Below are positions 6,773-49,500 of a stretch of 64,000 nt of DNA, one piece after another. The position numbers and the translations under genes were made by a program. This stretch comes from a virus. The stretch is from IMG/VR virus record IMGVR_UViG_3300045256_000753, positions 1-64,000 of that record; one strand, 5' to 3'. The number at the start of each line of letters is the position of its first letter. Position 1 is the first letter of the stretch. The notes below the pieces were generated by a model. That model did not search any database and was not told the DNA's origin. It saw only the letters and a list, made by a program, of their open reading frames with translations.

Positions 6773-8542
6773 CTACACCGCAGGTTCTTCAATCACGTTG
6801 CTTTGGAGGCTCTGGACCAATTCGCGCGTGAAGCTGTTGTTCGAGAAATCCAGGGCTCCGACCGCCGCTTCACCGAGGACCTTATCGATAAGGTCCTTCT
6901 TCTTTTGGAGCAGCTCAAGTGTGTAGTGGTCGATCGTCTTTCGCGACGTTTTCCGTTCGCGCGGGCGTTCCGAGATGATGTGGTACGCGACGACGTGCTG
7001 GTGCGGCGATCCGATACGGATGGGTCGCCCGAGGAGCTGGACGTAGTTGCCCCAGGACCACGGGGCGTCGAAGAAGATCATCGCCGCCGCCGCTTGAAGG
7101 TTGATCGCTTCGCTGCCGGCATCGGTGATGAAGATCACTTGGACGCCCGATTCCATGTCCTGGAAGGCTTCCTTTGCCTTCTGGCGCGCCGGGTTCTTTG
7201 CCGTGTCCACGACGTCCCCGGTGATTGCCACGCTCTTGATGTTGCGATCCTCCAGGATTTTCTGGAGACGCGGAACGAGGCTGGAGAAGCGCGTGTAGAC
7301 GATCGTCTTTTCGCCTTCGAGGTCGCCTTCGAAGAGATCGACCAGCGCTTGTTCTTTCGCACCGAGGCTCTTGACCTCGACGGTCTCGTCTCGGAAGGCG
7401 TCGGTCTCGATTGCGGCGCCGCCTTCGAACTTGAGGAGGGCCAGCGAATTGACGATCTGCTGGCAGTAGATCAGCGCGACGAAGGCCTTGTGCTCTTCGA
7501 AGTCTCGGACCTCGCCATCCCCAAGTTGAAGGACGCCCGTGAGCGCTTCGGAATACTTGATGTCCTCTGCCTGGGACAGCTCGCACGTGATCTCCTTCGT
7601 GATGAGCTTCGGAAGCTCGTCGGAGACCTGATGCTTCGGACGACCGAGGAAGTACGGATCGATGCGTTCGCGGAACTGTTGCAGGTTCTTGTAGCCCACG
7701 ACGATCGGAATCTTTCTCGTCCGGCTAACGGCCTGAAGCTTCGTGACGCAGAAGTCGTTGAGGAATCGCGACTTCGTGGTGAAGACGGTCGGGTGCACGA
7801 CCTTGTAGATGGCGAAGCCCTCGATGAGGTTGTTCTTGAGCAGCGTCGCGGTGAGGCCGTAAACGCGATCGGAACGCACCGACAGAAAGCTGCACACCTG
7901 CCAGGTTTTGGTCCCCGTGTTCTTGAACGCGGTCGCCTCGTCGTAGATCGTGATGAGGTCCTTCTCCTTGTTCGTCAAACGGTCGAGCAGACCCGGCGTC
8001 ACCGGCTTCTTCGGGTCGGGTTGGCCGTTGGGAAGAAGCGGCTGCACTGAGCCCGCGCTCCAATCCTTCACGAGGGAGTGGTAGTTGAGGATGAGGACGG
8101 CCTTGTCCGGTCCTTTATGATTCGACCAGGCGTCGTAGACCTCGGCCCGCTCTTTCGGGTTTCCGGATACGACGTACGTCTTCACGCCGGTCGTGAACTT
8201 GTCGAACTCCGATGCCCATTGGCGGATGGCGCTTTTTGGCGAGACGACGATGACCTTGCGATCCGGGTACTTCTCCCAGAAGTAGCAGAGGGCGCCGATC
8301 ATCTCGACGGTCTTTCCAAGGCCGGTCCCGTCTCCGAGGACCATGCGCTTCACCATGAGGAGGTGAAGGATCCCCTGAACCTGGTAGTACCGAAGACGGA
8401 ACGGCTCAGCCTTGCCGGAGATCCCCACGATCTCGTTCTTGAGCATCGGGGTCGGGCGCAGCGAACACGTCTTCGACTTCCGGATCTCCAGAAGCTTCCC
8501 GTAGATGTTGTCCTGCGGCTTGGTTTCCTGCGGGTCCGGCAT
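6773..8542 (-). CDS. SNF2-family (SF2) helicase/ATPase
   Basis: LRYYQVQG (Q motif), GDGTGLGKT (I), IYDEAT (II), LTAT (III), SEAINLQ (V), QLLGRPIRIG (VI). Confidence 0.93.
   Translation of the reverse strand: MPDPQETKPQDNIYGKLLEIRKSKTCSLRPTPMLKNEIVGISGKAEPFRLRYYQVQGILHLLMVKRMVLGDGTGLGKTVEMIGALCYFWEKYPDRKVIVVSPKSAIRQWASEFDKFTTGVKTYVVSGNPKERAEVYDAWSNHKGPDKAVLILNYHSLVKDWSAGSVQPLLPNGQPDPKKPVTPGLLDRLTNKEKDLITIYDEATAFKNTGTKTWQVCSFLSVRSDRVYGLTATLLKNNLIEGFAIYKVVHPTVFTTKSRFLNDFCVTKLQAVSRTRKIPIVVGYKNLQQFRERIDPYFLGRPKHQVSDELPKLITKEITCELSQAEDIKYSEALTGVLQLGDGEVRDFEEHKAFVALIYCQQIVNSLALLKFEGGAAIETDAFRDETVEVKSLGAKEQALVDLFEGDLEGEKTIVYTRFSSLVPRLQKILEDRNIKSVAITGDVVDTAKNPARQKAKEAFQDMESGVQVIFITDAGSEAINLQAAAAMIFFDAPWSWGNYVQLLGRPIRIGSPHQHVVAYHIISERPRERKTSRKTIDHYTLELLQKKKDLIDKVLGEAAVGALDFSNNSFTRELVQSLQSNVIEEPAV
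6774..6780 (-). promoter_or_regulatory. CGGTGTA motif upstream of the DnaC-like gene
   Basis: 17 nt before ATG 6756; same motif precedes other non-structural genes. Confidence 0.45.
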
Positions 8543-8555
8543 TTCGGCGCCCGCT

Positions 8556-8562
8556 TACACCG
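8556..8562 (-). promoter_or_regulatory. CGGTGTA motif upstream of the SNF2 gene
   Basis: In a 26-nt intergenic gap, 13 nt before the ATG, with no Shine-Dalgarno. Confidence 0.5.
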
Positions 8563-8568
8563 GCCCGG

Positions 8569-9009
8569 TCAGACCTCGTAGAGCTTGACGTTCCGATCCT
8601 GCGAGGCTTCGTGCGGCTTGCGGCGCTTGATGACGACCGTGTTCTCCGACACGACGCCCAGCATCTTGCGCACGATGGATAGCGCCTTCTCGGCGTCGTA
8701 TTCCTTGCAGGAGAAAGCGTCGAGCGCGAAGTACCGTTGAAGCGGCCACGCGTGCAAGGAGAGGTGGCTCGTCGAGATCACTTGGATCGTCGAGATGCCG
8801 CCCTCGTCTTCGAATTGTCCGGTGAGCTTCACGCGCTCCAAGACGTCCGGATCGACCGGCACTTCGTAGACCTGCACGTCGTCGAGGGGTTTCATGTCGA
8901 GCGCCTTCACGACGTTCTCGAACATCTGAGTCAGCTTCTCACGCGTGAAAACGGATGGATCGGATACACGGGCGTCCATCACAATGTGCAAACCGGCCGA
9001 ACTGGACAT
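8569..9009 (-). CDS. speD: Pyruvoyl-dependent S-adenosylmethionine decarboxylase proenzyme-like protein
   Basis: GLHIVMD N-terminus; GGISTIQVISTSHLSLHAWP...ALDAFSC matches the SpeD signature SHxSxHxWP...DxFxC. Confidence 0.88.
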   Translation of the reverse strand: MSSSAGLHIVMDARVSDPSVFTREKLTQMFENVVKALDMKPLDDVQVYEVPVDPDVLERVKLTGQFEDEGGISTIQVISTSHLSLHAWPLQRYFALDAFSCKEYDAEKALSIVRKMLGVVSENTVVIKRRKPHEASQDRNVKLYEV

Positions 9010-9075
9010 CTCTCGCTAGTTCCTGTCGTGGAAAGAAGACACCTTCACGTGCCGTTCAACCGCTTCGGCCACGCG

Positions 9076-9096
9076 TACTCGATACACCGTCGAGTA
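9076..9096 (-). promoter_or_regulatory. CGGTGTA motif in the loop of a 7-bp inverted repeat upstream of speD
   Basis: TACTCGA-CGGTGTA-TCGAGTA on the minus strand. Confidence 0.5.
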
Positions 9097-9099
9097 TGA

Positions 9100-9708
9100 T
9101 CACCAGAACGAAAAGTAAAGCGCCGCTTCCGGATTCGAACGCCACGTACCCCATGCGAGAGCGTACCCAGCGTAGAGACCGAAGTTCTTGGTCACGTCGA
9201 AACCAAGACCGCCTCCGAATGATCGGACGCCAACGTAAGCGTTGAGGTTGAAATATCGAAAGAAGTAAAACGGCTCGAACATCAATCCAGCATCGAGGCC
9301 GCGTCCAGCGTCTTTTTCTTCGAGGGCTTCGACCGGAAGATATCCGACCGCCGCCTTGAGTCGAAAGCGGAAACCCCACGTCGGCGGAACTTCCCGCGCG
9401 ACTTGCAGCTTCACGTTCGCATTCGCGTCGATGTGGTAGTTGCACCAATCGACGTGCATCTTGTACGGCTTCGGATCGTTGCCCGATCCGTAGACCCGCC
9501 CGTCCTTGTCCACGACGATGACCACGGGGTCGAGCGCGAACGTCGGCGGATTCTCCGACCGGCACTTCTGATCTTTCAGAAGCTGGACGAAGACTTTCAC
9601 GTCTTCTGCCGGCACGCAGGTCGCGCCCGCCTCGCAGGTGCCCTGAGCGAGTGCTGGCCGGGCCAGGAACATGCTGAGAAGAGCGAGGAAGGCGAGAACG
9701 CGCTTCAC
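9100..9708 (-). CDS. Exported protein with C-terminal outer-membrane beta-strand region
   Basis: Sec signal MKRVLAFLALLSMFLARPALA; four Cys in the N-terminal half; alternating-hydrophobic strands in the C-terminal half ending ALYFSFW. Confidence 0.75.
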   Translation of the reverse strand: MKRVLAFLALLSMFLARPALAQGTCEAGATCVPAEDVKVFVQLLKDQKCRSENPPTFALDPVVIVVDKDGRVYGSGNDPKPYKMHVDWCNYHIDANANVKLQVAREVPPTWGFRFRLKAAVGYLPVEALEEKDAGRGLDAGLMFEPFYFFRYFNLNAYVGVRSFGGGLGFDVTKNFGLYAGYALAWGTWRSNPEAALYFSFW

Positions 9709-9992
9709 CGGAAGTTCCTCACCATGTGATCCATGTCCTTGAGGAGATGGTCGATCTGGTCGTCGATGTCGTCGAGTTGGTCGGCGAAGTGCTGAATCAT
9801 CTGCGCATTCTTTTTCGCATCGTGATCGGACATGTGCTTCGTCATCATGTCCATCTCTTTGGAGAGACCGTGAAGGACGGCTTTCGCCTGCTCGATCTGG
9901 CGGTCGCCGCCCTTGATGTACTGCTCCGCGTCCTTCAAACGGCTCGCGGGGCCCATGGCGACAACGGTGCGGCGGTCGTAGGAGTAGCTCAT
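9705..9992 (-). CDS. Small helical protein with N-terminal YSYDRR leader
   Basis: MSYSYDRRTVVA... followed by a coiled-coil-like body; 4-nt overlaps with both neighbours. Confidence 0.85.
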   Translation of the reverse strand: MSYSYDRRTVVAMGPASRLKDAEQYIKGGDRQIEQAKAVLHGLSKEMDMMTKHMSDHDAKKNAQMIQHFADQLDDIDDQIDHLLKDMDHMVRNFR

Positions 9993-10267
9993 TTCATCGA
10001 CGCCTTTCCAACAGCTTCGAGCAGCTTGTAGAACTCGGACGACATGCCCATCGCCTTCTCGATGTGCTTGAGCGCTTCCTCGTAAGCCTTCTTGGTCGCA
10101 CCATCGACCAGACCCGCGTGAATGGCATCGTGGAGATCGGTACGCACGTCCCAGTGCAGCGTGTACGCGGCGTCGAGATGGTTGCGAAGATCGGCAAGCC
10201 CTTTCTTCGCGTCCCCCACCGTGTCGGCGACGCGGCGATCGTACGAGTAGCGATCACTTGAAGACAT
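9989..10267 (-). CDS. Small helical protein with N-terminal YSYDRR leader
   Basis: Start moved to ATG 10267 (MSSSDRYSYDRRVA...) with GGAGG upstream; overlaps the previous gene end. Confidence 0.8.
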   Translation of the reverse strand: MSSSDRYSYDRRVADTVGDAKKGLADLRNHLDAAYTLHWDVRTDLHDAIHAGLVDGATKKAYEEALKHIEKAMGMSSEFYKLLEAVGKASMK

Positions 10268-10505
10268 GGCTGCCTCCCGGCTTGTGGCCCCACGTGCCGG
10301 TCTTCGGGTCGAAGCCGATGTTGAACGGACGAAGGCCCTCTTCGATGTGCTTCGCAAGATGGAGCTGGCTCGTCTCGGTCGGCATCGCCCAGCCGCTGCT
10401 CTTGCCGTACATCACGACCTGGTTTGCGATGTAGCCCGCGTCGAGGACGTCATCCTCGTACCGGTTCGGGGCAGCCCCGATCTTGCTACGATCGTACGAG
10501 TACAT
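10254..10505 (-). CDS. Small protein with N-terminal YSYDRS leader
   Basis: MYSYDRSKIGAA...; starts 1 nt after the upstream stop. Confidence 0.8.
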   Translation of the reverse strand: MYSYDRSKIGAAPNRYEDDVLDAGYIANQVVMYGKSSGWAMPTETSQLHLAKHIEEGLRPFNIGFDPKTGTWGHKPGGSHVFK

Positions 10506-10506
10506 C

Positions 10507-11070
10507 TCAACCCCCGTATTTCTTCAAAAGATCATCCACGGTCTGCGCCGGGATCTTCGAATCGTCCTTCACGGTCACGGCGATGACGCTCGGCTTGACG
10601 ATGACCACGGTATCCACGTCCTTCGCCTTCACTCCGTCCGGGAGTTGCACTTCGACCGGTTTGTCTGCGCCGGGCGGCGTGAAGGTCACGGTGTCCGGGT
10701 TCGAGAAGAGCCCGGGCTCGTCGATGGGAACGACTTGGGCTTGGACGTCGCCCTTCGAGTCGGGTTGTCCGATCGGAATGATCTTGCCATCCTTGTCCAC
10801 CCGCCCCTCGGGCACCGTGTTGGCGATGTCGATCGCCTTGTGCTCTGGATCCTTCTTGCCGAAGAGCTTGCCGAGCAGACCCCCAATCTGGAGTTCCTTC
10901 CAGCCAATCGCCACGAGCAGCACTGCCACGATGACGATGACCAAGGCCACCCCCGGTGCGACCAGCTTGGTGCCGATCCAACGGAGGATGGTCTTGATGT
11001 GCTCCCAAACCGTCGCCCAGAAGCCCGGGCCTTGCGGTTGCGGAGCCGGTTCGGGAGTCTGATCGGGCAT
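10507..11070 (-). CDS. Membrane-anchored protein with extracytoplasmic domain (candidate inner spanin-like)
   Basis: Start at ATG 11070 by TGATG coupling to the holin stop (MPDQTPEP...). One strong TM segment VAPGVALVIVIVAVLLVAIGW then a soluble beta-rich domain. Confidence 0.7.
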   Translation of the reverse strand: MPDQTPEPAPQPQGPGFWATVWEHIKTILRWIGTKLVAPGVALVIVIVAVLLVAIGWKELQIGGLLGKLFGKKDPEHKAIDIANTVPEGRVDKDGKIIPIGQPDSKGDVQAQVVPIDEPGLFSNPDTVTFTPPGADKPVEVQLPDGVKAKDVDTVVIVKPSVIAVTVKDDSKIPAQTVDDLLKKYGG

Positions 11071-11522
11071 CACTTCCCCTGAGCTTCGTCGGGCGGAAGT
11101 TCCTCGGCCTTGCCTGCGGCTGCCGGAGGCGGGGGATCCGAAGTCTTGCCGCCGAGGCGCTGAGCGATCTTCGACGCCATCGCCGATTGGCTGTCGGCCG
11201 CGATGTTCAACCAGGCGCGGAAGCGACCGTAAACCCAACCGCTCGCGCCGCCACAAATGAGGCCGTAGAACATGCGCGCCGCACCCGACTCGCCGAGCGG
11301 CTCGGGCCACGGGAATTTCTTGGCCACGAGAGCAATGATGAGGCCGGTTCCGATCGGTCCGAGATGCAGACCCAGCTCGTTCCAGAGAACGTTCTGCTTG
11401 GCACCCTTCCAGAAGGCCTCCACGATCGTCCGAACGACATACGTCAGCATGTAGACCCCGAGGCAGAACAGAGCTGTCTGCCACGTGGCGAAAATCTCGA
11501 AAGCCTTGTCGAACGACGGCAT
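11070..11522 (-). CDS. Holin-like membrane protein
   Basis: Start ATG 11522 (MPSFDKAF) with GAGGTGA upstream; three hydrophobic segments and a charged C-terminal tail; 150 aa; follows the tail genes. Confidence 0.6.
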   Translation of the reverse strand: MPSFDKAFEIFATWQTALFCLGVYMLTYVVRTIVEAFWKGAKQNVLWNELGLHLGPIGTGLIIALVAKKFPWPEPLGESGAARMFYGLICGGASGWVYGRFRAWLNIAADSQSAMASKIAQRLGGKTSDPPPPAAAGKAEELPPDEAQGK

Positions 11523-11549
11523 TTCACTCACCTCTGTGGGTGTCCGCCG

Positions 11550-11559
11550 ATAAGAAGAA
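11550..11559 (-). promoter_or_regulatory. Candidate late promoter TTCTTCTTAT upstream of the holin
   Basis: Identical 10-mer at 28754-28763; 27 nt from the start codon. Confidence 0.55.
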
Positions 11560-11568
11560 GCGCGGCTG

Positions 11569-11913
11569 TTACCTACGGCGCTTCTTCTTGGGGGCCTCAA
11601 CGGGAGGCTCTTCCTGAGACTCTTCCGGAGCTGGCTCGTCCTTGGGGGCTTCGAGCATGGGCAAGTCGATCGACGGACCCGGAAGCGCCTTGAGGTCGGC
11701 GAGGAGCGGAGAGGGCTGACGAGGGGTCTCGACCGGAAGGAGGCCCGCTTCCCAACGGTCGATCTTCTCGGCCTGCTCTTGGAGGAGCTTGGCCTGGTCT
11801 GCCGTCATGAAGGGGTTGGCCAAGTGGCTGCGGAGACGCTCACGTGCCCGTCCCGCAGCCTGTTGGCGCTGTTCCGGAGAGAGATCGAGGTAGGTCAGAT
11901 GTCCGACGCCCAT
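11569..11913 (-). CDS. Hypothetical protein
   Basis: 114-aa ORF starting 1 nt after the upstream stop; Pro/Glu-rich tail ending KKKRRR. Confidence 0.7.
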   Translation of the reverse strand: MGVGHLTYLDLSPEQRQQAAGRARERLRSHLANPFMTADQAKLLQEQAEKIDRWEAGLLPVETPRQPSPLLADLKALPGPSIDLPMLEAPKDEPAPEESQEEPPVEAPKKKRRR

Positions 11914-11914
11914 G

Positions 11915-14900
11915 TCAGGTCACCCGGTTGGAAAGGGGAATCGAGTTCGGGTCGATGATCATCCGGATGTTGTCGTTGACGAGCGGGTGACCTTCGATGC
12001 GGTAGAGATCCGCCGCCGCATAGCCCTCGTTGGAACCGTTCGTTCCGATGAAGACGCTGCCGCTGTGCGCCGACGTGTCCTTGAGCATTTGGACAGTCGT
12101 GATGATGAGCATCATCAACTCGCCACCGGCCGAAACCTCCGTCGAGCCGACGTTCGTCACCGCGTTGCGAACGAGGTACGCGCGACCTTCGACGACGTTT
12201 GTGTGACCCGCCGCCGCTTGCACGCTCGGCTGCACGCACCCGACCTCACCGCCCGGGTGGGCGCCGTTGGCCGTGAACGCGGAGCCGCCGCGATTCGTGC
12301 GGAAGTTGACGAGTAGGGCGTAGTTCCCTTGCTCGCCATCGACGTGCACGATTGCATCGCCGGGGGCGCCGCTGGCGGTCGTCGAGGTGTCGAGGAGAAG
12401 CTCGTTCTGCTCGATCGACTTCGTGACCGCGAGGTTGCCCGCGATGCCGATCCCGTTTCCGTTGAGGAAGATGAGCGGGGCTCGCGAGCCTTCGCCCGAT
12501 CCGAGGAGGTTGCCTCGGAAGTCCTTGTCACGGAAGAGCGCACCCATGGGCAGCCGCTCCGTGCACCCGAGGTACTCCGTGCCGATCTCGTTGGCGTCGG
12601 CCGTTGCGAAGTTGCCCGGGAGGGTCTTCGGACGGGGAGCGACACCCGAAACGGGCGGGTACGCTGTCGGATCCTCGTAGCCAACATCTCGGAGGTCGAG
12701 TTGCTGCGTCGGATCCACATCGCCCGCGTAGCGGCCGGTGCCGAGCGTCGTCGCGAACCCAACCGAAGCGAGAACCTCCAGCACCTTCTGGTTCGGGCGC
12801 GTGAGGGCCGATTGGTTGAGGCTCGTCGAGGTGATCTGGAACGCCGTTCCGGAGAGCAGCGGACCAGGCTCGTACGGGATGTCGATGTAGTTCGTCTGGC
12901 TGCCCCACGCATCGCCCTGGTACGGCGTGCGCGAGTAGTTCACGACGATCTGATCGGAGTTCGTAGCCGGGCCCGGAACGACTCCGGTCGGGCCTGTGAT
13001 GACCACTCCGAGGTTGTTCGCACGAACGATGGTGTCTGCGGCCTGGTTGCGCATGAGCGTCGGCGACGTCGGGCGCGTGAGGACGAGACGGAACTCCTTC
13101 GTGATGTCGAAGCTTCCACGGTCGAAGCCGAAGATCGAAGCCTCGATGACGTAGTTGCCCGATGCGAAGGAAGCGATCGGGTTGACCGTCGAGCGCGTGA
13201 GGTCGATGGCTTTCGAGTTCAGGATGAACGTCGAGTCGCCGTCGTCATCGATCTCCACCCACATGACCGGACCATCGGCCGGATCCATGTTCTGCCGGAG
13301 GAGATTCTTCGCGCCGCCGCCCGTGGGGTTGCGGGTCGTGGCGTCGTAGGCCGAACCGTTCACCTTGTAGTCGTTGGCCTCGTACACTGCGAAGAGGCGA
13401 GCGACACCGTAGAACGGCGGAAGCTCCAGACCCGTTCGACCAAGGCCGCGCGAGTCCGTGAAGAACCGCATGCCGCCGTAGTTCTTGCCACCGAAGGTGA
13501 TCTCGGTGTTGTACGTGGCGGGGTTCGTGCCCGGGGGGTTGAAGTCGAGGGTCGTGAATGCGGCGTACGTGAGCGAACCGTTCGCGTACGGCACGTAGTT
13601 CTTGTCCCCATCGGCGAACGGCGGAGCGCCCTTCTTCGAGAGAGACATGTAGTTGACGCCCTCGGAGAAGACCGTGCTGTCGGCCGGCAGGATCGGAACG
13701 TTGAGTTCGCCCCATCCCGGAGAGAGATGGCGCGGCAACGTCACGTAGATGTTCTTCGTCGCGGCTTGCGCTTCCGTCGTGCCCGAGAAGAGTTGGAGCG
13801 GGTCGGTCGTCGTCCACTTGACCGTGGTGCCGTCCGGCTTGTTGAGCGGCATCAGGCCTTGTGCGTGCGCGATGCTGTAGGTGAGGTTCGTCGCCGGCGG
13901 AGCTGCGCCGCCGAAGATCGAGCGTTCGACGGTGAGCGTCGTCACGCCCACGGTGAGCACCGTGTATCGACCCGGAGCGAATCCGTTCGTGATGGTGAGA
14001 GCGTCACCCGGGGTCACGCCGGCCGCGCCGAAGTTGACCGTGGTGTCCGTGAACGTGGTCGAGCCGTTTGCTTGACCTTGGGTACCCGTCATCACGTTTG
14101 CGGTGCGCGGGTTCGCAGCGGTGCCGTCGATCGTACGGATCTCGGTCGGCCACGTCACGCGGCGGAACGGGGTGACGACGAGGGTCTTGCTGCCGAGGTC
14201 GGCAAACATCTCGGAGGTGGAGGGCACGAGACGCTTGTACGTCGTGCTTCGGAAGCGGCTCCAAAGGAGCGCCCAGTTAACGCGGGTCCCTTGGTTGTTC
14301 GAAGGAATGCCCGACGACTGGACGAGAAGCTCCGTCGAGGGGTTGATGAACGCGACCGAGTGGATCGAGTCCGGACGACGCGAGAGACCTCGGCCGGGCC
14401 CGTACATCACGTTGAGGCTGATGAAGAGCTGCTTCGACGTGACCGGGAAGTTCGCACCGAGGGTGATCGTGAGATCGTCGGTCGAAGCGGGGTTGGCCGG
14501 GGTGACCGTGTACATCGTGGACGGGAGCGGCTGGCTCTCGCCATCGAGACGGATCGTCACCGCGCCCGACACGCCATCGTTCAACCAGCGAACCTGATCG
14601 GCGTCGCCGCCCGGGAGACCCGACTTGAGCTGGGCCACCGGAACGACGATGACATCGGTCGGGCTGAATTGGTTGTTGCTCGAACGAACCGTGTGGTTCG
14701 CCGTGAGCTGTAGCGACCACGGGACGTTGATCGGCGCCGGAAGGGCGACTGAGTTCGCTTTCACGATGACATCGACGCTTTGGACGGTCGCTGCATCCGA
14801 GAAGGCGAGGCGAATGTTGTCCGGAGCATCGAGCTTCGTGACGCCGAGCGCGACGGAGCCTGCCGCGATCTTGTCCTGGTACGGAACGAACGGACCCTGG

Positions 14901-16258
14901 GGTCCCGCGCCCGTGCGCTTCCAGTTGGCGCGAAGCTGACCGCGAAGGACGCGATCGAGGTTCTCGCGGAGAAGCGCCGTGTAGTCGAACCCGTTGGGGT
15001 TGACGAGGTGACGAAGATCGAGGACGTCCGTCTTGGCGATCTGGTCGGAATACAGACCATCGGGGCGACCCGAGATGACCTTCACCGTTGCGCCCGCCTT
15101 GTGGAACTCGGCGCGGGTGCCGTTGGTTCCGCGAACGAGGCCCGTGATCATCGGAGGAACGCCGGTCGTGACGGCCGTGTACGTCATCAACTCGTCGCCG
15201 ATCTGAATGAGGACCGGGCTTGCGGGGCTGATGGGGAGCGGGATGTTCAACGCCGAGACGAGCTGTGCCGAAACCGCCACCGACGAAAGGTCGGCTGCGA
15301 GCGTCGCCGTCGTGGAGAACGTCTTGATGCCCGTGCGATCGACTGCCGTGGGGTTGCGGTTGAAGCCGCCGTTGAGGTTCTGGCTGGGATCGCCGTTCCA
15401 GGAGATGCTGTTTCGGCGGAAGACTGCCGCGATCGGGATCGCGTACGAGAACCCATCGACGGTGCCGAGCGCCGCTTGGGCGGTGTTCGAGCCGTCACCC
15501 GCGCGCCAAAGCCCGGCGTCGCCGAGAGCCTGTCGCATGTTGGTGAACGTGTAGCTCGTGGGGGCTCCCGCTGCGCCTTGCGCCTTGACGACGACCGGAT
15601 CGAAGCCGTCCGGGGCGCTCGTGAGGCCGACGAGACCCTTCACGACGCGAATGCGGTACTGGAGTTGGACACGCTCACTCGTCTCGAAGCCGAGAGCCGG
15701 ATCGATCAAGTCATCCGGAATGAACGTGTAGCCGCCTTCGACGTTGCCGTAGCGCCACACGGCGCTGGCTGCCGGCTTGTTGAGCGCGGACGGGTTCGGC
15801 GGGATGCGGGCAAGCCACGCCTCCAAGAACACGTAGTCGATGCGGAAGTCGCCCGAGTTCGCCGGAGGCGGGTCGAGCGCGATGACGTTGTATGTGTCCG
15901 CGTCGTCGGGGCTGCCGGGCGGGGTGCCCGTGCGCGTGCCAGTGACCGGAATCAGCCACCCGTTGACCACGGCCCACATGACAGCTTTTTGCTCACCCGT
16001 GCGCTGCGGGCCGAACTTCATCCAGTTCGACCAGATCGGGCTCGTGATGAAGTCCGCGCTCGGATTTGTCTCGTTGCCGAGAAAACCCGAGGGGCTTCCA
16101 CGAAGCACGATGCGACGGGAGAAATCCGTCGCCAGCTCTTGCAGGAGGTTGAACTCCGCATCCAACGGGGGCTTTCCCTGCTGGAGGATTGTGAGCGTGT
16201 ATGCTGTCCCGTTGGGGTCGAGGACGCGGGAGACGCCACTACCGAGATTCTCACCCAT
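11915..16258 (-). CDS. Large virion (baseplate/fibre-attachment) protein, 1447 aa; paralog of 25455..28055
   Basis: N-terminal QQGKPPLDAEFNLLQ motif typical of phage baseplate/fibre proteins; shares ETxxRVQxQYRxRV, GLWxAGDG, LGTVDGFxYAIP, VFRRN and RPDGL blocks with 25455..28055. Confidence 0.8.
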   Translation of the reverse strand: MGENLGSGVSRVLDPNGTAYTLTILQQGKPPLDAEFNLLQELATDFSRRIVLRGSPSGFLGNETNPSADFITSPIWSNWMKFGPQRTGEQKAVMWAVVNGWLIPVTGTRTGTPPGSPDDADTYNVIALDPPPANSGDFRIDYVFLEAWLARIPPNPSALNKPAASAVWRYGNVEGGYTFIPDDLIDPALGFETSERVQLQYRIRVVKGLVGLTSAPDGFDPVVVKAQGAAGAPTSYTFTNMRQALGDAGLWRAGDGSNTAQAALGTVDGFSYAIPIAAVFRRNSISWNGDPSQNLNGGFNRNPTAVDRTGIKTFSTTATLAADLSSVAVSAQLVSALNIPLPISPASPVLIQIGDELMTYTAVTTGVPPMITGLVRGTNGTRAEFHKAGATVKVISGRPDGLYSDQIAKTDVLDLRHLVNPNGFDYTALLRENLDRVLRGQLRANWKRTGAGPQGPFVPYQDKIAAGSVALGVTKLDAPDNIRLAFSDAATVQSVDVIVKANSVALPAPINVPWSLQLTANHTVRSSNNQFSPTDVIVVPVAQLKSGLPGGDADQVRWLNDGVSGAVTIRLDGESQPLPSTMYTVTPANPASTDDLTITLGANFPVTSKQLFISLNVMYGPGRGLSRRPDSIHSVAFINPSTELLVQSSGIPSNNQGTRVNWALLWSRFRSTTYKRLVPSTSEMFADLGSKTLVVTPFRRVTWPTEIRTIDGTAANPRTANVMTGTQGQANGSTTFTDTTVNFGAAGVTPGDALTITNGFAPGRYTVLTVGVTTLTVERSIFGGAAPPATNLTYSIAHAQGLMPLNKPDGTTVKWTTTDPLQLFSGTTEAQAATKNIYVTLPRHLSPGWGELNVPILPADSTVFSEGVNYMSLSKKGAPPFADGDKNYVPYANGSLTYAAFTTLDFNPPGTNPATYNTEITFGGKNYGGMRFFTDSRGLGRTGLELPPFYGVARLFAVYEANDYKVNGSAYDATTRNPTGGGAKNLLRQNMDPADGPVMWVEIDDDGDSTFILNSKAIDLTRSTVNPIASFASGNYVIEASIFGFDRGSFDITKEFRLVLTRPTSPTLMRNQAADTIVRANNLGVVITGPTGVVPGPATNSDQIVVNYSRTPYQGDAWGSQTNYIDIPYEPGPLLSGTAFQITSTSLNQSALTRPNQKVLEVLASVGFATTLGTGRYAGDVDPTQQLDLRDVGYEDPTAYPPVSGVAPRPKTLPGNFATADANEIGTEYLGCTERLPMGALFRDKDFRGNLLGSGEGSRAPLIFLNGNGIGIAGNLAVTKSIEQNELLLDTSTTASGAPGDAIVHVDGEQGNYALLVNFRTNRGGSAFTANGAHPGGEVGCVQPSVQAAAGHTNVVEGRAYLVRNAVTNVGSTEVSAGGELMMLIITTVQMLKDTSAHSGSVFIGTNGSNEGYAAADLYRIEGHPLVNDNIRMIIDPNSIPLSNRVT

Positions 16259-16326
16259 GTGATCTACATCCCTCGTCCTCGCCCGCTTATCAGTGTTTTA
16301 GAGAGGGTCGGGGTGTAAGAGCGCCC

Positions 16327-16647
16327 ATGGCGACGAGTAGCTGGTCCGAGGCAGGTCACCGGGTTTGCGCGGTTTTTTGTGGAACCGTGATCACCTTCAC
16401 GTGCGAGGCGCGGCTTCTCATCATTGAAAATGGCAGCACGCACTGGCAAACATGGCCGCTCTCGCAGTTGACGATCGGCGGCCCTTTCACGAATTCAGAG
16501 CGTCTGATTCGTACCTGGCTGGGTTTTTACCAGGACCCGCAGCTTCAGGATGCCGGCGCCGGCCTTCTCCAATTGATCCTGGGCAGCATCCCGGAAGCGC
16601 GCCCGCCGCAGCCTCCCCCGCCACCATCGAGCAAAAACCCGAACTAG
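16327..16647 (+). CDS. Hypothetical protein, accessory island
   Basis: ATG 16327 (MATSSWSEAGH...) 9 nt after a GGGTGTA motif; ends at TAG 16647. Confidence 0.6.
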   Translation: MATSSWSEAGHRVCAVFCGTVITFTCEARLLIIENGSTHWQTWPLSQLTIGGPFTNSERLIRTWLGFYQDPQLQDAGAGLLQLILGSIPEARPPQPPPPPSSKNPN

Positions 16648-16739: not shown

Positions 16740-16880
16740 GGCCCAGACCCTTTCGCTTGCCGGTGACAGTCCCTAGTACACCCGGCAAACTGTAAGAAAA
16801 CCAAGCATGTAGGACATGTAGGTACAACTCATCTGTAGAAAAACGATTTGATCCGTGTCACCCTCGCCTGTATGGGGGAC

Positions 16881-18146
16881 ATGAAGACGCAAGTTTTTGC
16901 AATTTTCGCGTTCGTTTCGGTCGCCCTGACTGGCCTCACCGGCTGCGTGACCGACGTTCTTCCCTACCAGACGGCGCCGGATAGCGGCGACCCGACCAAG
17001 GATTCGGGCAATGCCCCGGATGTTGGGGAGGGTGGTATGGGAGCCGATTCCGCTGACGGTGGAATGGGGTCCGACACCGGCATGGGTCAGGACGGCTCGA
17101 TGGGCCAGGACGGGTCATCGACCGATGGCTCGATGGGCCAAGACAGTGGGACGGACTCCGGCATGGGTTGCGACGGTGGCAACCTGATGTGCGGTAACGT
17201 CTGCGTCGATTCGCTGACCGACAACAACAACTGCGGCGGTTGCGGGATCGCGTGCGGCGGTGGAGACACGTGCAACGCTGGCTACTGCACGCAAACGCTG
17301 GTCTTCGAGGCAACGAATCAGCTCGCGCTCTCGCTCAGCGGCAACAACGTCTACTTCTCGAACTCGGCGAACAAAGTCGAGAAGTGCGGAAAGAATGGAT
17401 GCGGCAATCAGCCGACCGTCCTCTCCACGAACCAGAACAACCCGACAAGCCTCGCGACGGATTCGACCGACGCCTACTGGACGAACTACCAAGGCGGATC
17501 GCTTTCGACTGTTCCTCTTGGGGGTGGCTCGACGACGAACCTGGCTACGAACCAGATGCAGCCGTACAGCGTCGCGGTCGATGCGAACGGCGTCTACCTG
17601 TACTGGGCAGAATCGATCTTCAACGGCACCGTCAAGAGGTGCTTGGCGGCCAACTGCGCGAACACGACGACGGCTCTGGCGACGGGCACTCAGGCGAGCG
17701 CCATCTCCGTCGATTCGACCAATGTTTACTGGTATGACTTCGCGGCGAAGCGGATTCTGAAATGCGCCGTTGGGGGTTGCAGCGGCAATCCAACCATCCT
17801 CGTCAACAATCAGAGTTCGACGAACTACACGTTCACGGACGGCTCGAATCTCTACTGGGCTTCGCTCACGTCGGTCTACAAGTGCGCGACTAACGGATGC
17901 GGCGGAAATCCGACCGTCTTGGCTTCGAATCAGAACGCCAACGCGATTGCTGTCGTCTCGGACGGCACGAACGCCTACTGGACCGACAAGGGTGGCACGG
18001 TGCAAAAGTGCGCCCTCAACAACTGCGCGAACACGATCACTCTGCTCGCGGTGAATCAGAACCAGCCGTACGCCATCGCGGTCGATTCGCAGCACGTCTT
18101 CTGGACGAACTACGCGGGCGGCCAGATCATGCGGGCCCCCAAATGA
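16881..18146 (+). CDS. Myxobacterial-style lipoprotein: D/G/S linker, Cys-rich repeat, beta-propeller
   Basis: Signal MKTQVFAIFAFVSVALTGLTG-C with lipobox; GMGQDGS repeats; CGNVCVDSLTDNNNCGGCGIACGGGDTCNAGYC; about seven xxDxxxxYW blades with KCxxxxC loops. Start ATG 16881. Confidence 0.85.
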   Translation: MKTQVFAIFAFVSVALTGLTGCVTDVLPYQTAPDSGDPTKDSGNAPDVGEGGMGADSADGGMGSDTGMGQDGSMGQDGSSTDGSMGQDSGTDSGMGCDGGNLMCGNVCVDSLTDNNNCGGCGIACGGGDTCNAGYCTQTLVFEATNQLALSLSGNNVYFSNSANKVEKCGKNGCGNQPTVLSTNQNNPTSLATDSTDAYWTNYQGGSLSTVPLGGGSTTNLATNQMQPYSVAVDANGVYLYWAESIFNGTVKRCLAANCANTTTALATGTQASAISVDSTNVYWYDFAAKRILKCAVGGCSGNPTILVNNQSSTNYTFTDGSNLYWASLTSVYKCATNGCGGNPTVLASNQNANAIAVVSDGTNAYWTDKGGTVQKCALNNCANTITLLAVNQNQPYAIAVDSQHVFWTNYAGGQIMRAPK

Positions 18147-28730: not shown

Positions 28731-28763
28731 CCTCCGTTCAAACGGAGGCTTTCATAAGAAGAA
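28731..28763 (-). promoter_or_regulatory. Candidate late promoter TTCTTCTTAT plus RBS-occluding hairpin
   Basis: TTCTTCTTAT-GAAAG-CCTCCGTT-TG-AACGGAGG-AG-ATG. Confidence 0.6.
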
Positions 28764-46500: not shown

Positions 46501-49500
46501 GCCGGATGGCGTTCGACGCCAAGGTGAGCGTCGTCTGGTTGACCGTCTCGTCGAACGTCGCTGCCGTGACGATGTAAAAGTCACGGAAGGACACGAGGCC
46601 ATCGGTAAATTCGACGATCGTGTTCGTCGAATACGCGGACGTGCGGTCCCCTTGAAGGACGATCGCGTTCATGCCCCGCGCGACCGAACCGAACGCTTGA
46701 AGCTCTTGCACGAAGTAGGCAGGAGCGCTCGTGGGGGTCGGGCCAGAGACGATGTAGAGATTCGGGTTGATGTAGTCGTTTTGGAATGTCTGCGTACCGG
46801 ACAGCGTGACCGTCGTCTGGTTCGCACCGGAGTCGTAGCTCGACGAGCCGATCTGGTAGACCTCAACCTGCTCGATACGGAGCAAGAAGTTCGGTTGGAA
46901 GATCGAAGTCTGGTCCCCGGAGATGATGACCGAATTCTGTCCTTGGGTGATGGCGACCTGAGCCGTCAGCATCGGCGGGTTGAGGACCGTGATCGACTTC
47001 TCGCCGCCATTCGCCTCGTAGACGAAGTAGTCGATGAGGACGCGTTCGGTCGGAGCGACAACTGCTCCGTGCGGAAGGGCATCCGTGAGCTGATTGTCCG
47101 GAAGGAACGTGATCGTCGATGCAGCCGTGTTGACAACGACTTGCGAGCTATCTTGCGGACGGCCGCCTCGGTAAACCTTCGGCGCCGGGTTGCTTGCCAC
47201 CGTCTTCCCAGTGGGGTTGAAGGTGAGAACGCTCGTCGGCGACGGGTGGGGCTGCGTCAGTTCCTTGCGAACGAGGAAGGTTCCGGGCTCTCCGACGATC
47301 GGCGGCGCCGGGGGTGTCGGTGGCGACGTGATGGGCGGTGCCTCGACATACGTGAGAAGGATCTCCTCGTTGGCCAACATGCGCTGCGCGAACGTGATGA
47401 ACCCCAGCGCCGGCTGGACCTGGTAATCCGTCCCCAGCGTCAGCTTTCGCACCCAGTAGAAGATGCGCGGCGGAGCAAGGTCGCCCGAGTTGAAGTTGAG
47501 GTTGCCCGTTGCCTGGCTGACTTCGACGTGGCCCGCAGGGAGGATCGACGGATTGGTGAATCCCGTGTCCGTCGAAACGGTCGTGACGACAGAAGAAAAC
47601 GTCGCCCCGCTACCATTTCCGAATCGGATTCGCGACACGCCAATGGCGCTCTTCGGAATGTGCAAGCGCCGGTACACACGGTACGTGCTGGACGACAGAG
47701 TGACGAAGGGTTGACCGGAGTCCACCGTCAGAGCGTGCTGGGCCACGCTGGTCACCGAGCGACTGCTACCGGAGTCCGGTCCGGATGTGATCCGAATGGT
47801 GTCCCCGATCTGCACGCCCGATACAATGAAGTCCGTTGCCCCATCGCTGAGGGTGACGAAATCCGGGTAGGTTGCGGTGCCAGAGGAGACGATAGAAGTC
47901 TCGTTCTGCCCGGTGCCGAGAGCGACGATTCGTTCGACCGACGTGTTCGGATCGATGAGCTGGACCTTTTGGAAGAACCGGTCGGCGAGGATCTCTTTCC
48001 CGCTCAAGATCTCGTACGAGAGAGGCCCGGAGCCAGCGGGGGGCGGAACGTCAGTGTCAACGCTGGTCGCGGCGACCGACGTAATCGTGTAGACGCCCTT
48101 TGCATATCCGGCGAGCCCGACCAAGTAGTCCCCAGCGACAACGCCGTCAGAGATGAAGTTCGCGCCCGTGTCCGTGAAAGTCGTTCCGCTGAATGCGCCG
48201 GTCGATCCGACAGCACGGTTGACGCCCGATGTCGTCGTGAAAAGGACGATGCCGGCAGTGGGATCGAAGAGGCAATCGGTGCCGATCGTGAGGGGCGAGT
48301 AGATCCCAGTGCCCGGCGACGTTTCGAGCGAGAGCTGTACGTTACCCGCGAGTACGAGTGGATCCGAGAGCTGCGCGGCGCCGGCCGGCTTCTGGAGCGG
48401 GATGAGGATGTTGTTCTTGCGCTGCGCGAACTGGAACGTCCCCGAATCGAAGTCGATCGTGTAGCCGAGACCGGCCGGTGGGCTCGTGAGGTCCAAACGC
48501 GGAAGCGTGCCAGTGAAGGTTCCCTGCCCTTGGTTGACCGTAACGATGAGGGTGTTGTCGTCCACTGGAACGGACGGCAAGAAGACTTGAGGCGAGCCAA
48601 TGATCGGGTTGGCCCAAACGGCATCCGTCACCGTGTAGAGCGCCGTGACGTCTTTCACACCCGCCGTCTGCGCATCGAGGTTCACCGGGGATCGGAAGAA
48701 GCGCATTGAGATGCCGTTCTCGATGGCGAGATCGCCGAAGATGACTTGAACTTGCGCGGCGCCGAAACGCGCCTTGTCCGCAAGCGAGAACTGCACTCCT
48801 CCCGTTCCAGGATTCACCTGCACGGTGCCCGCTTGCCCGATAGGATCGAAGCTCGACGTGTAGACGAACTGGGGGAACTGGTAGTACGGGTTGGCATTCG
48901 GCAAAGCGAAAATGAGGTCTCCGCCAGCAGGAGGAACGCTGCCGATCACACCCGGTGCCGTGATGGTGTTGAGCGCCTGCCTTGGAAGGAGGAGATCACG
49001 AGCAAGGAGCGTCCCGTCGAAGTAGACACCAAGTCCAGGGTTGGCGATGATATCGGCGTTGCTGAAATTCAGCTTGCCAGTCGTGCGCGCCCACTGGACG
49101 GTGCCGGCCGGAGGGCTGCCAAAGCTACCCTCGTTCGGAACCTCGACGGTGAGAAGCCACCTGTGAGATCCGATCCGGATGAGCGGGTACTGGGTTGTCG
49201 CCGGGAGCGGGTTGAGCAGGATCGTCTGGTCGCCGATCGTTCCGATGCGGCCCGTCGATTTGCTGAACGGGAAATATTGCTGCTGTTGCCAGCGAACCGT
49301 TTGACCGTTGTAGGTCGTGAGGTCGGCCGGGTTCCAATTGAGGTGGCCGGTCGAGAGCGAAAGCTCCGTCGTGCCGGCCGGAGGACTGCCGAAGTCTCCG
49401 TCCGTGAGGACAAGAGCAACCGTCTGCGTCGTGCCGCTGCCCACGCTTCCGATCGACAGACGGTAGGGTGCGGTTGCGAGAAGCTGGAGGGGCGGTGTGA

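Follow-up and report, generated by a model that had tools for sequence, protein, structure and literature searches.

A conserved pair of envelope proteins, one with a predicted six-stranded barrel, in a clade of huge phages

In the current study, we describe a gene cassette on the minus strand of a 64,000-nucleotide stretch of viral DNA (the window), which makes up the first 64 kb of the 101,637-bp IMG/VR virus record IMGVR_UViG_3300045256_000753 (CheckV completeness 21%). The cassette encodes a holin-like protein, a single-pass transmembrane protein (the TM protein) and, beyond a slot of variable small genes, an exported protein whose C-terminal domain consists of amphipathic beta-strands (the beta protein). 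It is a conserved envelope module in a clade of huge phages, with the TM and beta genes as its core pair. Judged from their sequences, the TM and beta proteins constitute a new pair of protein families, linked in function and including a predicted six-stranded membrane barrel; host lysis is a tentative best guess at what they do. An earlier note on this DNA had described the cassette as a lysis-like, envelope-bridging device, and every sequence feature that it named was found (Table 1).

Linkage of the TM and beta genes

The strongest evidence for a functional link between the TM and beta proteins comes from gene fusions, since an exhaustive profile search recovered proteins of 350–410 amino acids (aa) in which the two are joined in frame. 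Profile–profile comparison equates the TM family with the N-terminal half of these fusions (probability 99.7%, E 2e-26) and the beta family with the C-terminal half (probability 100%, E 9e-56). The fusions form at least eight clusters with less than 50% mutual identity, drawn from four data sources and lying on contigs of up to 113 kb. By the Rosetta-stone argument, in-frame fusion in at least eight lineages indicates that the TM and beta proteins share a function, and we regard the functional link predicted in this way as firm.

To compare gene order, the proteins of the window were searched by tblastn against 37 locus rows from related viruses. The same order was seen throughout, namely fibre-like gene, (114-aa gene), holin-like gene, TM gene, variable slot of 0–2 kb, beta gene, (S-adenosylmethionine decarboxylase, or AdoMetDC, gene) and SNF2 gene. 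Synteny of the TM and beta genes holds in 34 of 35 related viral loci, the exception being a row that ends approximately 0.7 kb past the TM gene, and 29 of the 37 rows have a holin-like homologue upstream of the TM gene. In the window, the interval between the TM and beta genes is 0.8 kb and holds three small genes. Distant relatives of low G+C content have no slot: their TM and beta genes abut at a distance of 9 nt or overlap by 4 or 20 nt, with a small multi-transmembrane gene again standing directly upstream of the TM gene, in the position of the holin-like gene. The synteny of the holin-like, TM and beta genes in related phages, which the earlier note had named as a test, is thus observed, and its view of the TM and beta proteins as a functionally coupled pair is upheld by their co-conservation, by their abutting or overlapping genes in distant relatives and by their fusions.

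The window is itself a fragment of a huge phage. Four relatives rated 100% complete measure 407, 437, 513 and 529 kb, with direct terminal repeats in three of the four, and contigs carrying the TM and beta families reach 400–660 kb. Megablast of positions 8000–16500 against GenBank phages gave no nucleotide matches, and the taxon labels of the ESM Atlas hint at Myxococcota, resting on one record each.

The beta protein and its predicted barrel

The beta protein combines a signal peptide, a predicted periplasmic head and a C-terminal beta domain. In an alignment of 40 family members (A1), Cys31, Cys49 and Cys89 are invariant and Cys25 is nearly so, an invariant D67/R71 hairpin is present, and the C-terminal half is highly conserved. 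Cys25 is preceded by Q-G-T, and the lipobox that would mark an outer-membrane spanin lipoprotein (o-spanin) is found at this position in none of the aligned sequences. An N-terminal hydrophobic segment is present in 150 of 157 full-length family members, as called by a hydropathy rule and not by SignalP. Among the 185 members of at least 150 aa, the last residue is Trp in 66, Phe in 57 and Asn in 46 (mostly as SFN, with Phe penultimate), such that 169 end in W, F or N (in SFN). The signal peptide, the four cysteines, the strand pattern and the aromatic end are family-wide features.

A word-indexed search returned 84 homologues of the beta protein, and 116 beta-family proteins came out of an exhaustive profile search through 1.84 billion representatives; nearly all are approximately 200 aa long and span both domains, and none of the 116 is of a recognisably different kind. 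No outer-membrane protein (OMP) family of Pfam matches the beta protein, nor does it have a relative in Pfam, NCBI-type, PHROG or PDB sequence searches, while its nearest named ESM clusters (PagL and OMP_b-brl, both at 0.89) are a lead only. A very distant relative of low G+C content encodes, directly after its TM gene, a beta homologue (L057, 4862–5431, plus strand) that has no signal peptide and one Cys, and that ends in F-D-F; it may be a degenerate copy or may reflect a different mode of delivery.

When given alignment A1, AlphaFold modelled the beta protein with a mean predicted local distance difference test (pLDDT) score of 87, rising to 90–98 over the last 90 residues. The model comprises a helix (34–52), a small sheet (56–97) and, from residue 111 to residue 200, six long strands (111–123, 138–150, 153–160, 163–171, 176–185, and 191–200). 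Column statistics over the 40 sequences reveal strict residue alternation in all six strands, one face being composed of Trp, Phe, Leu, Val, and Tyr. On the other face, Gly112, Gly160, Gly165, and Gly181 are invariant and Gly141, Gly167, and Gly169 nearly so, accompanied by the invariant or near-invariant polar residues Arg114, Arg116, Lys118, Asp139, Asn154, Asn156, Arg162, and Asp171. Approximately 30 conserved hydrophobic or aromatic residues point outward in the model and the glycines and charged residues point inward; the predicted polarity is inside-out, as in a membrane barrel. The first loop of the beta domain, the only insertion-prone one, lies on the predicted outer side.

That the six strands close into a monomer is predicted with good support, the strand number being unusual. 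The earlier note had considered an oligomeric barrel because few strands were evident; this is now doubtful, since AlphaFold closes the strands into a monomer with an invariant-glycine inner face, and an inner face lined in this way favours a narrow barrel over a wide oligomeric pore. In contrast, the description of a Sec-exported non-lipoprotein with about six beta-strands and a beta-signal-like end is supported by the signal peptide, the AlphaFold model and the strand alternation.

In an all-against-all structural search, the best match of residues 112–202 is the designed barrel BBn6 (9xzt; Z 9.2, root-mean-square deviation 2.4 Å, 80 of 90 residues), followed by a designed eight-stranded transmembrane barrel (Z 6.2) and by OmpW, OprF, OmpA, PagL, NspA, and TamA (Z 4–5). 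Foldseek against the PDB found nothing at E ≤0.001 for the beta protein (template-modelling scores of about 0.2), and among its weak BFVD rows, phage proteins carrying an outer-membrane barrel annotation are over-represented, coming from uncultured phages, Vibrio phage nt-1 and Aeromonas phage phiAS5. The BBn6 barrel has six strands and a shear number of 8, a fold that according to its authors is "rarely if ever" sampled in nature (PMC12478100). The phage domain matches that fold but is opposite in polarity, BBn6 being soluble, designed de novo and hydrophobic in its core, and the two share 5% sequence identity.

With the small outer-membrane barrels (OmpX/Ail/Lom, the OmpA N-domain, PagL, OmpW) and phage OMP-like proteins, the beta protein has in common a Sec signal, amphipathic up-and-down strands, girdles of aromatic residues, a C-terminal beta-signal that ends in an aromatic residue and an interior lined with polar residues. 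It differs from them in its six strands (theirs number at least eight), its N-terminal head and its glycine-dominated inward face; to our knowledge, the smallest monomeric outer-membrane barrels have eight strands. Of the features expected in a substrate of the beta-barrel assembly machinery (BAM), a Sec signal with an AxA-type site, an even number of antiparallel amphipathic strands whose hydrophobic face points outward, periplasmic location of both termini and an aromatic C-terminus are all predicted; the monomer has fewer than eight strands and belongs to no known OMP family.

The holin-like and TM proteins, their expression and their surroundings

The holin-like protein contains two strong hydrophobic segments and a third, weaker one rich in Gly and Ala, followed by a charged, Pro-rich C-tail of approximately 50 residues. 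The architecture of a small membrane protein with a charged C-tail fits a holin. No holin family of Pfam or PHROG matches it, and its nearest named ESM Atlas clusters are holin families at 0.85, a lead only. As the earlier note had stated, the holin-like gene is followed by a coupled gene for a protein with one TM segment, the ATG of the TM gene sharing one base with the holin-like TGA. Adjacent, translationally coupled genes for small membrane proteins are typical of holin/antiholin pairs, and in this respect the two genes resemble such pairs. T4 holin T offers another parallel, since in T4 the tail-fibre genes are directly followed by gene t, whose product is a single-pass protein with a large C-terminal domain. 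However, no Pfam holin family, including Phage_holin_T, matches either the holin-like or the TM protein at E ≤1.

The TM protein consists of an acidic, Pro-rich N-tail with almost no Lys or Arg, a single, very hydrophobic TM segment of 22 residues (36–57), an invariant LQIGGLLGKLFGKK-type motif and a conserved C-terminal domain. It has 298 homologues, the best 120 at 58–78% identity, on contigs of up to 659 kb. The AlphaFold model (pLDDT 75) shows a long helix (17–55), a disordered stretch (76–85), a small beta domain and a C-terminal helix. In the fold search only the long helix was matched (Z at most 4.1), along with weak BFVD rows, and a comparison of the TM and beta families with PDB sequence profiles gave nothing under E 0.5.

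The peptide VDKDG, to which the earlier note had drawn attention as shared by the TM and beta proteins, is indeed present in both, but at chance level and without conservation. Shuffling gives a P of approximately 0.03 for this one pair, uncorrected, and the consensus of the region differs across the two families (R-V-[DG]-x-x-G versus V-V-D-x-x-G-R). Homology of the TM and beta proteins through this peptide was rejected, the profile–profile probability of the two families being 0.4%.

A promoter-like motif, TTCTTCTTAT, stands in the 46-nt gap that separates the holin-like gene from the 1447-aa and 114-aa genes upstream. The window contains two exact copies, compared with 0.83 expected when up to one mismatch is allowed, and the second (28754–28763, minus strand) precedes a gene in a block of large, presumed structural proteins. 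The core TTCTTAT is found at only three places in the 101-kb contig, each time on the coding strand and approximately 25–45 nt before a start codon; its third copy (contig positions ~96,062–96,069, minus strand) precedes a head-protein gene of phrog_240 (E 6e-14). In most relatives, a T-rich element ending in TAT is seen by eye at the same place before the holin-like homologue. These observations suggest that TTCTTCTTAT is a candidate late promoter of this phage clade, late expression being suggested by the motif common to the holin-like gene and the head-protein gene. They also suggest, with moderate confidence, one transcription unit extending from the holin-like gene through the beta gene. 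A sigma-70 scan found no promoter. Another motif, (C/G)GGTGTA, was set aside: its 10 sites compare with 4.7 expected and 4 of 100 shuffles reach 10, which alone is not significant; one copy lies between the beta-gene stop and the AdoMetDC gene.

The three slot proteins of the window have only their N-terminal YSYDR in common, and in relatives the slot differs in gene content. In one relative (L003, 4817–6001) it holds two other proteins (92 and 298 aa) with the common N-terminal motif PLDQFIA.RVK.RF, and the slot apparently gathers small genes whose shared N-termini are specific to the lineage. One lineage has a 432-aa protein (L003, 2954–4252, plus strand) inserted between the holin-like and TM genes; from reading its sequence, we take it to carry a DnaJ-like J-domain motif.

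Nearly all genes of the window lie on the minus strand. Downstream of the beta gene, a 90-nt gap is followed by the AdoMetDC gene, which occupies this position in only about one-third of related loci, and then by an SNF2 helicase gene. When the eight genes at 8569–11913 were searched against Pfam and PHROGs, AdoMetDC was the sole match, and none was obtained for the holin-like, TM and beta proteins. Nine further proteins encoded at 11915–35645, seven of them of 425–1593 aa, had no Pfam match past the curated cut-off, and the five large proteins of this region that were run through PHROGs matched no named family. Profile libraries essentially cannot annotate the virion module of this clade.

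Table 1. Positions of the cassette, its parts and related features (window coordinates unless a relative is named)
Feature	Position	Strand	Basis or remark
Promoter-like motif TTCTTCTTAT	11550–11559	-	Within the 46-nt gap that precedes the holin-like gene
Holin-like inner-membrane protein, 150 aa	11070–11522	-	Gene model with GAGGTGAG ribosome site
Single-pass membrane (TM) protein, 187 aa	10507–11070	-	Start overlaps holin-like stop
Variable slot, three small YSYDR-headed proteins (83, 92, 95 aa)	9705–10505	-	Gene models
Small YSYDR genes, individually	10254–10505, 9989–10267, 9705–9992	-	Each product opens with YSYDR
Beta protein, 202 aa	9100–9708	-	GTG start overlaps preceding stop by 4 nt
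Signal peptide of beta protein, residues 1–21	9646–9708	-	A-L-A site before Q22, no lipobox
Predicted periplasmic head domain, residues 22–107	9388–9645	-	Alignment A1 and AlphaFold: helix 34–52, small sheet
Six-stranded amphipathic beta domain (predicted), residues 108–202 and stop codon	9100–9387	-	Ends ALYFSFW, beta-signal-like
S-adenosylmethionine decarboxylase homologue	8569–9009	-	PF02675, E 6e-17; phrog_3125
Fibre-like gene, 1447 aa	11915–16258	-	Upstream of cassette, then 114-aa gene
Endolysin-like gene (PG_binding_1 and Peptidase_M15_4), 309 aa, in a relative	L042 5408–6337 = G001 307,407–308,336	-	PF13539 and PF01471

Envelope topology and possible function

In the mechanism that we propose, the promoter-like element would drive the packed run of holin-like, single-pass, variable small and beta genes. 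The beta protein would be exported by Sec and cut after Ala21; its 85-residue head would be periplasmic and oxidised, probably with two disulfides, and its last 95 residues would insert in the outer membrane as a six-stranded barrel. The single-pass protein would sit in the inner membrane and work with the beta protein, a partnership suggested by the fact that their genes never separate in evolution and form one reading frame in several lineages. The most likely job of this set would be to breach the envelope as infection ends, in that the holin-like protein would open the inner membrane, an endolysin encoded elsewhere would remove the wall, and the beta protein would perform the outer-membrane step done by lipoprotein spanins elsewhere.

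Lysis is thus the predicted role that we favour, though at somewhat short of even confidence. It is supported by the probable late timing, by the position after a fibre-like gene, by the holin-like neighbour retained across deep divergence and by the presence of three envelope-directed proteins; T4 holin t and T7 gp17.5 are similarly placed after fibre genes. The fuller proposal, that a natural six-stranded outer-membrane barrel, below the size of all known ones and with a fold met so far chiefly in designed proteins, may serve as the outer-membrane component of spanin-independent lysis, made together with an inner-membrane partner and sometimes as a polyprotein split by signal peptidase, we consider rather unlikely to hold in its entirety.

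Six endolysin-related families were searched for in this contig and in four complete relatives. A complete 407-kb relative (G001) encodes an endolysin-like protein approximately 50 kb from its holin-like/TM/beta cassette, on the opposite strand from its neighbours, which, reading their translations, we take to be NUDIX, vWA-like and adenylosuccinate synthetase-like genes. Since this protein has no N-terminal hydrophobic segment, it is of the cytoplasmic type and would need a holin, and a 52%-identical homologue is present in one of the four other relatives searched (G005); an endolysin of this type in two complete relatives speaks for a lytic role. PF01464 gave one match, inside a 635-aa frame of one relative. 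PF00959, PF01510 and PF00182 gave nothing, and the control for PF00182 matched nowhere.

Several observations weigh against a lytic role or against its barrel component. No endolysin is adjacent to the cassette, none of the six families was detected in the 101-kb fragment, and none was found with them in three other near-complete relatives; the holin-like label, too, rests on architecture only. Conservation of the TM protein across the clade (48–71%) equals or exceeds that of the neighbouring helicase, and such conservation exceeds what is usual for lysis proteins. Co-conservation by itself is weak evidence, the whole region being syntenic core genome, and the beta homologue of the very distant relative L057 lacks a signal peptide. 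As for the barrel, we know of no precedent for a natural six-stranded transmembrane barrel, and the monomer model could be the forced closure of a protomer from a larger barrel.

A related reading would make the pair a spanin analogue, in which the TM protein would be oriented N-in/C-out, its C-terminal domain would cross the periplasm and bind the barrel-anchored head, and the membranes would be fused or torn after loss of the wall. The architecture of the pair recalls two-component spanins (lambda Rz/Rz1, T4 PseT.3/PseT.2) in its linked genes for an inner-membrane-anchored and an outer-membrane-targeted protein, located close to a holin-like gene where the late region ends. The phage genes also vary in arrangement as spanin genes do, these being separated, abutting or overlapping; moreover, more than 120 known inner-membrane spanins have no predicted coiled coil, and the unimolecular spanin of T1 is beta-rich (PMC6139136). 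The charges flanking the TM segment in 120 homologues are near balance and lean slightly towards N-in (K+R 3.17 and D+E 0.31 on the N-flank; 2.81 and 0.70 on the C-flank). One fusion (P0218) has no second hydrophobic segment and would place both parts on one side of the membrane, like a reversed unimolecular spanin, but it is a singleton on a 1.3-kb contig.

The other fusions speak for a different topology. At least eight divergent fusions keep, after the TM-protein domain, the hydrophobic signal-like segment of the beta protein, mostly with a small-x-small site before Q-(D/E)-C-P, and they keep the Cys pairs as well. For the beta part to be exported, the retained segment would have to be oriented N-in/C-out, which would put the TM protein's conserved domain in the cytoplasm and its acidic N-tail outside. 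This arrangement suggests that the fusions are polyproteins split by signal peptidase and that the TM protein has no periplasm-spanning arm, although an internal start codon, if present in the fused genes, would weaken this reading. If the domain is indeed cytoplasmic, the sequences suggest a pair coupled in synthesis or regulation rather than by a periplasmic bridge. The bridging that the earlier note had envisaged is therefore doubtful and the less likely reading.

Comparison with known spanins also reveals differences. In the outer-membrane partner, a site of the signal peptidase I type and a barrel-like anchor take the place of a lipobox and lipid, and the inner partner has no coiled coil, may face the cytoplasm and has no sequence or profile relationship to two-component spanins. 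The fused forms resemble T1 gp11 in being one chain with an inner-membrane segment, an outer-membrane anchor and beta-rich soluble parts; they are, however, reversed (N-terminal TM segment and C-terminal barrel, instead of a lipoprotein signal at the N-terminus and a TM segment at the C-terminus) and carry no lipobox or other lipoylation signal, and most retain an internal signal peptide, so that they look like polyproteins cut by signal peptidase rather than a bridging chain. Given also that no significant similarity or motif joins the TM and beta families, we consider a spanin analogue unlikely.

As further support for a lytic role, no o-spanin lipoprotein gene was seen beside a transmembrane-protein gene, either in the 101-kb contig or in a complete 407-kb relative. 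A simple lipobox scan of proteins of up to 250 aa on the coding strand of the 101-kb contig found no credible lipoprotein, a crude rule that unusual lipoboxes could escape, and the scan of the 407-kb relative found two orphan lipoproteins, neither adjoining a transmembrane-protein gene. In that relative, a 120-aa lipoprotein (G001 48,122–48,484, which is L060 8122–8484, minus strand; lipobox LVGC, with a Pro- and Cys-rich mature part) is encoded between large tail-fibre-like genes, with no transmembrane-protein partner adjacent, and recalls the lipoprotein island at 16848–18146 of the window.

Two further explanations concern the barrel itself. The cassette might remodel the envelope without lysis, the barrel blocking superinfection, masking a receptor or stabilising the envelope over a long infection from its place in the host outer membrane, with the single-pass protein as its inner-membrane partner. 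Small barrels annotated as OMPs are encoded by phages and are enriched among the weak BFVD matches, the high conservation would suit contact with a conserved host component, and lipoprotein genes occur among the fibre genes of this clade. The motif common with the head-protein gene and the position after the fibre-like gene nevertheless speak for late expression, a timing ill suited to exclusion, and a conserved holin-like gene lies immediately upstream; remodelling thus seems improbable. If the beta domain were instead soluble or oligomeric in the periplasm, its hydrophobic face being buried in an assembly or binding lipid, this would account for the count of six strands, fewer than eight, for a best structural match that is a soluble designed barrel and for the missing Pfam OMP match. 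The arrangement of some 30 outward hydrophobic residues around inward glycines and charges is, however, the reverse of a soluble barrel, the aromatic C-terminus and signal peptide are conserved, and the variable, insertion-prone first loop fits an extracellular loop; we regard such a domain as very unlikely.

In approximately 15% of phages that infect Gram-negative hosts, no spanin can be recognised, and the same source describes only one other outer-membrane disruptor, a cationic peptide (bioRxiv 10.1101/515445). In the literature searched, spanins and the cationic peptide disruptin are described as outer-membrane disruptors, and no barrel-anchored equivalent was found. If the lytic role is correct, a protein pair anchored in the outer membrane by a barrel would represent a third solution to outer-membrane disruption and would offer a handle on how uncultured phages of 400–660 kb leave their hosts. 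A six-stranded membrane barrel, if real, would lower the known size limit of outer-membrane proteins and BAM substrates. Should the pair prove not to be lytic, it would still count as an unexplained envelope device in the core genome of a large phage clade.

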